Shown: piece after piece, positions 45,001 to 48,000 of the stretch | Numbering within the stretch: the first letter of the stretch is position 1 | Layout: the number at the start of each line of letters is the position of its first letter | IMG/VR virus record: IMGVR_UViG_3300031555_010858 | Coordinates: 128,001 to 192,000 of that record | Strand: one strand, 5' to 3' | DNA length: 64,000 bases | DNA from: a virus | Taxonomy: Duplodnaviria > Caudoviricetes | Position numbers: made by a program

Positions 45001-48000
45001 TTATAGGTTTATATCCTGCCATAAACTGTATCAACTCCTTTATATTTATTTAGCTTAATCTTACTAAATTGTTTTAGCATAAAAAATATAGACAGTTGGT
45101 ATTTTCAGATACCAACTGTCTATACAAAATTAAATATGAGTTTATGGGAGGTTTTTGGGTTAAGTTGTTCATTGAAAATGAACGTACCGTCCTAACCCAA
45201 AGTCAATTATTAACAACTTATTTTTCCACTCCTCCCTTTGGAGGGAGTCGTTTCGTTAATTAATGCTTTGCATTAATAAGTTGTTGTACTGTTGATAATT
45301 TATAATACACTTTTTATAACATTTAATTCATATAATAATTGATACAATTAAATGAAATTATAATTTTTTACTAACATTATGATAAATTGAATATTAAAAG
45401 GAGGAATAATTATGAAAACGACATTTACATTATTCAAAGAAGTTTTTGGAGATGAGAAAATATTTTTATATATTGAAGAATTACCTGAAGAAAAGACTTA
45501 TTATATAAAAGTAGAAGGTGATATTATAGAAGAAGAATTAAGTAAAATATCATTACCTGATAGATTAAAAGATGACTTACGAGGAGATATAGTAAATATA
45601 GTTAAAGGTTATAATATAATGATGAGTGGGAAAATATATAACGAACAAAATAATGAATTATGTAAAGAATATTTTAGGTTTGCTTTAAAAAAATTTTGCC
45701 AATTACATGGAAGTTTTTATAAATTTAAAGAAGAACTTATATAATAGGAGGTAGTATATGGGAAAATATTCAGATCATTCAACTTATATGAATGAAGAGG
45801 AGGTAGAAGTACCTTCAGTTACAACTATTATGAAAATATTAAATAAACCCTTTATTGCTAAATGGGCTAATAGTTTAGGATGGAAAAGACAATCTTATGA
45901 TAAGGTTCTAGAAGAATCTGCAAATAAAGGAACGTTTGTTCATGAACTTTTACATGAATATTTATTTAAAGAAGGAAAAGAATTTGATATAAGTAACCCG
46001 GATACAGTAAACTTTATATATGAAAATATAAATGCTTTTAAGGATTATTTAAAGACAGTTGAGCTTGAACCGATATGGGGAGAGAAATCATATAGTACTA
46101 CACGTTATGGTGGTACAATAGACCTTTTATGTAAAATTAATGGTGATTTAACAATTCTAGATTTTAAAACATCTAAAAGATTTTATTCATCACATTTTAT
46201 TCAACTAGGTGCTTATATTCAATTATTAGAGAAACATGATATATATGTAGAGCAAGTTGGTATATGTAGAATAAAAGACGGTGAAGTTAATGTTAAATTT
46301 AAACATAGAAGTGAAATGGAAGATTATATAGATTTATTTAATAAGTTGACAGATGTGTTTTATATGGTTTATGAATTAAATAAAGAATGGGGTGATTTAT
46401 TATAATGATTAAAAGGTTTTTAGTAGTGGGTGATATCCATTTTGGGTATTACCCTCCTGAATTGCTTTATAAAGAATTTCAATTAATTATCGATAATCTA
46501 AAAGATATCGATTGTGTTGTTATCGCAGGAGATTATTATGATACAAAGTTATCAATGTCAAGTGCACATGCAATGTATTCAGTAAAAGCATTTTCGGATT
46601 TAATTAAAGTATGTGAGCAGAATGATATTAAAGTTAGACAAATTAGAGGAACTAGTTCACATGATCCTGAAAATCAATTAAAGAATTTAGCACAGATAGC
46701 TAATAGTAGCCAATGTGATTATAAATTAATATTAACAGTTGACGAAGAGGAATTATTTCCAGGAATAAATATATTATATATTCCTGAAGAATATATGGAA
46801 GATTATAAAGATTATTATAAAGAATATTTTAACAAGAAATATCAATTTATATTTGGGCATGGAATGTTCGAAGAAACTAATTTTTCTTCAAAGAATAAAT
46901 ATCAAACTATGAAAAAATATCCAGTATTCAATTCTAAAGATATGGAAGATATATGTGAAGGACCTATAGTATTCGGTCATATTCATACAGCACAAAGAAT
47001 AAGAAATAGAATTCAATATACAGGAAGTTTAGTTAGAAGTAGATTTGGTGAAGAAGAGGCTAAAGGTTTTTATATAGTAGAATTTGATAGTGAAACTAAA
47101 GAATCTAATTTTGAATTTATTGAAAACGAAAATACTATGAGATATGATACGATAGAGATAAATCCAGATAATAATGTATTTTCATTAATGATAAACGAAC
47201 AGATAAATTACTTTAAAAACCTAGTTAATACTTATAAAAAAGACTACTTAAGAATAAAAATAAATACACCAGAGAATATGATGAATTCAGCAACTTTTGT
47301 TGATAACATGAACGTAGTATTTCATGATATGAAAAACGTTAAAATACAGATTATAGAAAATAGTAAAGTTAAATTAGACAAAGAACTTAGAGAAAAGGTT
47401 AATTTATTGATGGATAAGTATAATTTTATATTCGATAAATCTGTAGGCTACGATGAAAAGATAAGAGAATATATAAAACTTAAAACAGGAAAAGAAATAA
47501 GTTTAGAAAGGATCAGGTCAATGATCTCTGGTAATGCTAGTAAATAAAATGTTTGGAGGCTAGTCGACGGTCTCCAAGCAGTGATTTTTTATTTAATAAC
47601 ATTATTATAACTGAATGATAAAATTGTATTTTAAATATAACAAATAAAATAATTAAAAATATGATTTTTTTAAATCGAAAGGAGATATGAGTTTATGGAG
47701 AATATAAATTTATCACCAACGACAATCCATGGAGATGGATCTATGTCAGGAAACAATTTAATACAAACTAATGGGAAAAATAAATTTTTAGATAATTATA
47801 ATAGAATGAAAAAATCTGATACGGAGCAATTATTAATGGGATTACCTGAATTTGTAATTAAGGATATGGTTTTATATTTTTTATTAGATGAATATCCAAA
47901 AAGAAATAATTACATTACAGGAGTTTTAGAAGTGTTCGTAAATCAATTGAATTTGAAAGATATAAAGGACGTTAAAATATTTGATATGGTGCAATGGTGT

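Follow-up and report, generated by a model that had tools for sequence, protein, structure and literature searches.

Jumbo phages of the AR9/PBS1 type run two RNA polymerases of their own, and to our knowledge almost nothing is known of the non-coding RNAs in their expression programme. Here we analyse a structured element on the minus strand of a 64,000-nucleotide stretch of viral DNA (the window; bases 128001-192000 of the single 202,636-bp record IMGVR_UViG_3300031555_010858, Caudoviricetes, G+C 28%), located at 45079-45329 within a 377-bp divergent intergenic region. Coordinates are those of the window unless a genome position is named. The record carries split multisubunit RNA polymerase subunits that, by protein search, share only ~28% identity with their counterparts in Bacillus phage AR9/PBS1, Yersinia phage phiR1-37 and Staphylococcus phage S6, and nucleotide searches against cultured phage genomes gave no DNA-level match to the window phage.

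The late promoters of AR9 follow AACA-N6-T(A/G), the last base being +1; an early promoter consensus has been described as well, and two promoters serve those AR9 genes whose expression lasts throughout infection (PMC5312081). The non-virion polymerase of AR9 reads the template strand in single-stranded form and needs uracil, not thymine, at -11 and -10 (PMC5449584). AACA-N6-TA late motifs and TATATATTAT-N6-G early motifs are found genome-wide both in AR9 and in the virus studied here. In contrast, our family model finds no copy of the element in the AR9 genome.

Several other described systems resemble the element in part. Like RsaE/RoxS, the C-rich small RNAs of Firmicutes, and like trans-acting small RNAs of phages, it would be a stand-alone unit with a terminator, and in the window copy and four orthologues an unpaired CCUC/CUCC just before the terminator could mask GGAGG-type sites. 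Here, however, the conserved part is a three-way junction rather than the C-rich tail, most paralogues have no such tail and no conserved target was found. Like 6S RNA, the element holds an RNA copy of promoter sequence, the 3' strand of its helix P1 corresponding to the late-promoter template strand; but 6S RNA is a long irregular helix imitating an open bubble, and its binding partner is the host sigma-70 holoenzyme, whereas the mimic here would be a single strand for a phage polymerase, there is no Rfam 6S match, and the likeness lies in sequence alone. Like HK022 put, lambda nut and Bacillus EAR, the element occurs in several homologous copies per phage genome and lies after a promoter-like block, before terminators and co-oriented genes, at the head of an operon. 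Unlike them, it is followed, after the terminator, by the downstream gene's own promoter, it shows no sequence similarity to them, and its fold is a three-way junction plus hairpin P4 instead of two adjacent stem-loops.

A multi-copy structured RNA family

As judged by sequence comparison against Rfam, the locus is a member of a new, well-supported structured RNA family of AR9-like uncultured jumbo phages. On balance we think it probable that 45079-45329 (minus strand) encodes the A-type copy of a structured small RNA whose family is conserved, present several times per genome and specific to a clade of these phages; this grading applies to the reading of a stand-alone small RNA as a whole, with the start, end and timing of the RNA predicted from sequence alone. 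The minus strand folds at -64.3 kcal/mol (z = -7.5; equalled by 0 of 200 shuffles) and has the following parts, in 5' to 3' order.

45286-45329, minus strand: promoter-like upstream block, AAATTAAAT..ATAAAAA..TATTATAA-N6, kept in all three paralogues and in relatives
45274-45285, minus strand: AACA-N6-TA late-promoter consensus, AACAACTTATTA, present in all 27 family members
45275-45285 with 45212-45222, minus strand: helix P1, 11 bp, whose 5' strand coincides with the AACA-N6-TA motif
45256-45279, minus strand: hairpin P2 in its extended form, with the core AATGC/GCATT at 45262-45274; GNRA-like loops are frequent in relatives
45228-45251, minus strand: hairpin P3, CUCCC/GGGAG stem, built as A-C-G-A / stem / loop / stem / G-A-G-U
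45212-45222, minus strand: 3' strand of P1, AAUAAGUUGUU, the RNA equivalent of the motif's template strand from -11 to -1
45183-45198, minus strand: conserved purine-rich stretch, GGGUUAGGACGGUACG, family consensus YGG(UU/AA)AGGAAGAUACGU
45167-45183, minus strand: hairpin P4, GTTCATT/AATGAAC, followed in most relatives by a U-run and then serving as a first terminator
45126-45154, minus strand: tail, unpaired in the minimum-energy fold, with an anti-Shine-Dalgarno ACCUCCC (45146-45152) and a 14-mer (45134-45147)
45079-45125, minus strand: strong intrinsic terminator, a 17-bp stem (45086-45125) plus U-run
45062-45073, minus strand: separate AACA-N6-TA promoter of the downstream virion gene, AACAATTTAGTA, a motif kept in every orthologue

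An AU-rich linker precedes the purine-rich stretch. P4 of the window copy has no U-run and is enclosed by a copy-specific helix, TTGGGTTAGG/CTTAACCCAA (45191-45200 with 45155-45164, one G-U pair). The final stem and U-run read as a terminator on the minus strand only, and all orthologues have a terminator at the equivalent place, although its sequence differs.

Much of this layout had been recognised in an earlier reading of the same DNA (the sequence-only reading), which described a structured, non-coding unit on the minus strand, ending in a terminator of its own and distinct from the downstream gene. That description holds: the AACA-N6-TA motif, the hairpins and the unpaired stretch are present where it placed them, the downstream gene does have its own promoter motif, and the terminator exists, with a stem of 17 bp and a U-run in place of the claimed 16 bp. 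It had overlooked that the AACA motif itself forms the 5' strand of the 11-bp helix with 45212-45222, as well as the conserved block at 45286-45329 and the two further paralogous copies.

These copies emerged from a self-search of the 202-kb genome, in which 45140-45329 (minus strand) is one of three paralogues spread at 22, 68 and 173 kb, two of them in divergent intergenic regions. The other two are:

genome 22438-22602, plus strand: B-type paralogue
genome 67874-68044, plus strand: paralogue C

With pattern scans and two covariance models, IMG/VR and metagenome contigs yielded 24 distinct sequences, whose scores under model R2 are 69-147 bits. Three further, more divergent copies (L256, L257 and L258) lie in the 143-kb contig G005, giving 27 distinct sequences in all, and near-complete relatives have four copies each. 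A looser pattern scan yielded a single real member, L215, among the ~80 loci listed, and a locus search with the virion protein alone found no relatives beyond those already known. Pattern matches in L120 (a Kurthia metagenome-assembled genome), L085/L111, L099 and L102 were set aside as chance or coding sequence. The copies of G005 are near-identical in their core, yet their loci are orthologous to different copies elsewhere, which suggests, at the sequence level, homogenisation of copies within a genome.

Over the whole window no Rfam 15 family reached its gathering threshold, and at E<=10 the interval 44900-45500 gave chance-level matches on the terminator hairpin only; the small RNA proposed by the sequence-only reading matches no Rfam family. 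A published catalogue of structured-RNA candidates drawn from IMG/VR has more than 10,000 unnamed entries (PMC10690425); the newness of the family is judged here against Rfam alone. ARAGORN found no tRNA or tmRNA gene in 44000-46500. A kink-turn was rejected for P3, whose loop is a symmetric 2x2 G·A/A·G with Watson-Crick pairs on both sides and no bulge. A hammerhead ribozyme was rejected as well, the flanks being (A/G)CGA and GAG(U/C) instead of the CUGANGA/GAAA core, with no Rfam match. Small open reading frames (ORFs; one of 32 aa on the minus and one of 55 aa on the plus strand) are not shared among copies, and differences in loop length between copies are not multiples of three.

Covariation, alternative pairing and strand

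In the family alignment, 86% of cells are paired, as against 32-44% when the partners are slid. Thirteen pairs are changed on both sides compared with 7.8 in shuffles (0 of 500 reach the observed value), and compensatory changes occur in three hairpins. The three-way junction of P1, P2 and P3 is recovered in single-sequence folds of five members. P3 (helix 4 of the alignment) is 96% paired, with five of its seven pairs changed on both sides. A manual parse of the 24 sequences shows its family form to be X-CGA-stem-loop-stem-GAG-Y, a tandem G·A internal loop closed by an X-Y pair that is either A-U or G-C; stem and closing pair covary across all 24.

P1 is paired in 24 of 24 sequences and invariant in sequence save at one position. 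The base found there, A or C, changes in step with its P1 partner in 23 of 24 sequences; in 24 of 24 it does so with another partner, located immediately 3' of P2. The divergent G005 copies add a second compensatory position, their inner P1 changing from UUN/N'AA to UCC/GGA with a proximal GGAG as alternative partner, and across all 27 members AACAAC/GUUGUU is invariant and inner P1 changes by compensation. The innermost 3-8 nt on the 5' side of P1 are shared with extended P2 and can pair in either of two ways; by sequence covariation, they are held either in a long P1 or in extended P2, partners that are mutually exclusive and both covarying. Because the variable base covaries with downstream partners, the 5' strand of P1 should belong to the RNA in one functional form at least, and that form must then start upstream of the +1 predicted from AACA-N6-TA.

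Other pairings were tried and rejected. A switch between the tail and the 3' strand of P3 did no better with cognate than with non-cognate pairs (permutation p = 0.11), and on inspection an antiterminator pairing of CUUCUU with AGGAAG showed no covariation in the copies that have CUUAUU.

The minus strand is indicated by U-runs that follow the terminators on one strand only, and the G·A motif and GNRA-like loops fit it too. Some results nevertheless weigh against a stand-alone small RNA. Counts of G-U and A-C in paired columns are similar (22 vs 19), so that pair chemistry alone leaves the strand undecided. The invariance of P1 extends to its sequence and not just to its pairing, which a promoter constraint at the DNA level could explain. 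Every copy is co-oriented with the next gene, an arrangement that a cis-acting leader fits too. The conserved purine-rich stretch has no shared target among the gene starts of this phage, and the C-rich tails described below belong to related orthologues, so that their recurrence does not amount to seven independent events.

The first two of these results would also suit an element acting as DNA, either a cluster of sites for a polymerase or regulator (AACAAC and GTTGTT facing both ways) or an origin of replication equipped with a promoter and readily unwound DNA. Most copies have an additional conserved TTGTT ~60-75 nt upstream, and the dispersal of the copies at 22, 68 and 173 kb of the genome is in keeping with this idea. 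Yet we regard it as very unlikely, given the compensatory changes in three hairpins, the strand-specific tandem G·A, the GNRA-like loops and the U-runs on one strand. Moreover, in reverse complements of the B and window copies the inverted motif on the opposite strand has no TA/TG of the late consensus.

Promoter signals, downstream genes and possible function

Motifs of the AACA-N6-TA class are ~3-fold denser in the intergenic than in the coding DNA of this genome, and 56 of their 72 intergenic copies point at a gene <=200 nt away, making this the dominant gene-proximal motif. The extended late consensus in this genome is (A)AACAA-N5-TAA. The motif at 45274-45285 fits the late consensus, and even G005, whose TA lies within a tetraloop, preserves its register. 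On sequence grounds it may be a second start, giving a 5'-shortened RNA without the P1 5' strand. The early-promoter consensus spans ~40 nt, takes the form GTAAAAAGGT-N4-TTTCAATTATATATTAT-N6-G or GTAAAAAGGT-N4-TTTC(A/G)ATTATATATTAT-N6-G, and matches the AR9 early motif. The upstream block of the element shares AAATTTCA and TAT(A/T)AT-N6 with it but is longer by ~5 bases. Across the family this conserved, early-promoter-like block spans 45-75 nt.

At least eight early-promoter sites were noted, all on the plus strand (window 56696; genome 4645, 24865, 68040, 84711, 87575, 90274 and 104078). Directly after the +1 of one early promoter, and before the polymerase beta' gene, a perfect 17-bp hairpin is present (L002 3048-3100; genome ~68050-68100, plus strand); it has no U-run, and its orthologue in L078 does have one. 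Upstream of the conserved block of the window copy, a sigma-70-like site, TTATCA-17-TATAAT (10 of 12 matches), occupies 45357-45385 on the minus strand. It was rejected as the promoter of the element, since it is not conserved in the paralogues and such sites are fewer than shuffles predict.

Across relatives the element precedes at least seven unrelated gene groups, among them a virion protein, two distinct small proteins (one DNA-binding) and a metallophosphatase. The gene downstream of paralogue C encodes the C-terminal part of the beta' subunit of the non-virion RNA polymerase, the counterpart of AR9 g154. In every case the terminator of the element is followed by the next gene's own late or early promoter. 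The presence of this promoter after each terminator, together with the unrelatedness of the genes, favours a stand-alone RNA over a leader. A riboswitch or other metabolite-sensing leader was rejected on the same observations, namely the seven unrelated downstream groups and the promoter that separates element and gene in all copies.

A stand-alone RNA would be made from the upstream block, possibly together with a 5'-shortened form from AACA-N6-TA. It would end at P4 or, in the window copy, at the strong terminator, giving ~195-215 nt here and ~140 nt in most copies. The structured core, common to all copies, would be the functional part, most plausibly a platform for protein binding. In A-type copies, reading through P4 would expose a CCUC/CUCC tail able to occlude GGAGG/GGGAGG sites. 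A strongly conserved, multi-copy RNA with an invariant helix formed by the late-promoter motif and the sequence complementary to it offers a concrete candidate for a regulator of the jumbo-phage programme and, despite the phages being uncultured, could be tested in vitro from synthetic templates.

The co-orientation of every copy with the next gene leads to the alternative of a cis-acting leader, which would act on the polymerase transcribing it in the manner of put, nut or EAR, or would be an attenuator or riboswitch governing whether transcription passes P4 and the main terminator into the next gene; the gene would thereby gain a second, differently timed route of expression. A promoter-like block, a structured RNA, one or more terminators and a co-oriented gene follow one another in every copy, at seven different loci, and several copies per genome stand at the heads of gene blocks. 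The mutually exclusive P1 and extended P2 also fit this reading, and the dual promoters of AR9 genes expressed throughout infection offer a parallel (PMC5312081). Against this stand the conserved promoter that every downstream gene has between terminator and start codon, the unrelated functions of the downstream genes, which argue against a ligand-sensing switch, and conservation that resides in helix sequence and not in the junctions. In addition, inspection revealed no covarying antiterminator partner for the 5' arm of P4, and the main terminator here, at 17 bp, is very strong. Based on this analysis we hold a leader to be unlikely, though still worth weighing seriously.

We place rather less belief in a polymerase decoy. 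Here the 3' strand of P1, exposed by the switch between P1 and extended P2 or in a 5'-shortened late isoform, would titrate or re-target the non-virion RNA polymerase in a 6S-like way. As a fact of sequence, this strand complements AACA-N6 (-11 to -1) perfectly in every copy, and within it lies the 3'-UUGU-5' which the AR9 enzyme recognises single-stranded. The invariance of AACAAC/GUUGUU in all 27 members with compensation in inner P1, the register of AACA-N6-TA preserved even in G005, and the standing of this motif as the dominant gene-proximal one of the genome are also consistent with a decoy. However, the AR9 enzyme is known as a reader of DNA, not RNA, the strand is base-paired in the full-length RNA, and any helix with a promoter as its 5' strand automatically has such a 3' strand. 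No homologue of the AR9 promoter-recognition subunit gp226 was detected, which is not evidence of absence as the record is estimated to be 82% complete and is distant from AR9. If a decoy did operate, its 6S-like action would be directed at a non-canonical viral multisubunit polymerase that reads the template strand and requires uracil.

The tail, the helicase start and neighbouring genes

The genes on either side of the element, and the start region to which its tail has been linked, are:

44084-45022, minus strand: virion structural protein gene (phrog_21032), downstream of the element, start at 45022
from 45412, plus strand: gene block with a PD-(D/E)XK nuclease, a metallophosphatase and a DnaB-like helicase (helicase ATG at 47695)
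47685-47698, plus strand: helicase start region, spacer plus ATG at 47695, identical to 45134-45147

This identity was the basis on which the sequence-only reading proposed a late, trans-acting antisense small RNA, its 14-mer (extendable to ~16 bp) pairing with the helicase spacer and ATG to lower replication late in infection. The match itself is exact and has only these two copies in the window, and the predicted fold leaves the stretch with the 14-mer unpaired. The helicase is also the best predicted partner of the tail out of 153 gene starts, at -26.7 kcal/mol compared with -19.9 kcal/mol for the next (background over the 153 starts: mean -10.8, sd 3.0 kcal/mol). Control comparisons do not set it apart from chance. 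A perfect antisense match of >=14 nt to some distant gene start (-30..+15) is found in 7.8% of 16,194 genomic segments of 226 nt, and 2 of 40 shuffled tails (5%) reach -26.7 kcal/mol against some of the 153 starts.

Nor does the match persist in relatives, where covariation of the 14-mer with its target would be expected. In three related contigs with helicases 78-86% identical, the start regions differ and complementarity to the tail is at most 7-10 nt, the 10-mer lying outside the RNA, while the duplex energies of tail and helicase fall at the 49th-78th percentile of the background. Within this genome the 14-mer is lacking in both paralogues, and its stretch is the least conserved part of the element. 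The 14-nt match is best taken, on these sequence comparisons, as a chance or strain-specific by-product and not as a conserved function; at a GC content of 28%, perfect antisense matches of this length are no evidence of targeting. We give helicase repression by the element very little credence. Separately, an out-of-frame ATG at 47687 (plus strand) overlaps the helicase start and opens a 6-codon mini-ORF (47687-47707), and the 14-mer spans both ATGs.

The anti-Shine-Dalgarno character of the tail, also part of the sequence-only reading, has fared better, albeit not for the family as a whole. A C-rich motif in the unpaired tail is kept in five of the seven orthologous copies that precede the virion gene: the tail has CCUC/CUCC(C) in every one of the five that lack a U-run behind P4 (the window copy, L098, L100, L105 and L084) and in neither of the two with a U-run there (L018 and L075). 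Most paralogues have no tail. In the whole genome only 12 CCTCC are neither coding nor opposite a ribosome-binding site, and the next-best predicted partners of the tail after the helicase are start regions of the GGGAGG or GGAGG type. It is plausible from these sequences that the tail of this copy masks GGAGG-type ribosome-binding sites, which would not be the shared function of the whole family.

The B-type copies are closely followed, at the loci that precede the small-protein genes, by a mini-unit made up of AACA-N6-TA, a short unpaired CAUCUCCU stretch and a strong terminator (L001 2612-2720; genome 22612-22720, plus strand), found at the same place in L081, L107, L108, L076 and L112. On its sequence this mini-unit is a second candidate small RNA, conserved across relatives and of anti-Shine-Dalgarno type. 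Elsewhere in the window, four very large ORFs of >2990, 1551, 4283 and 1431 aa are arranged in tandem at 3-33087 on the minus strand.

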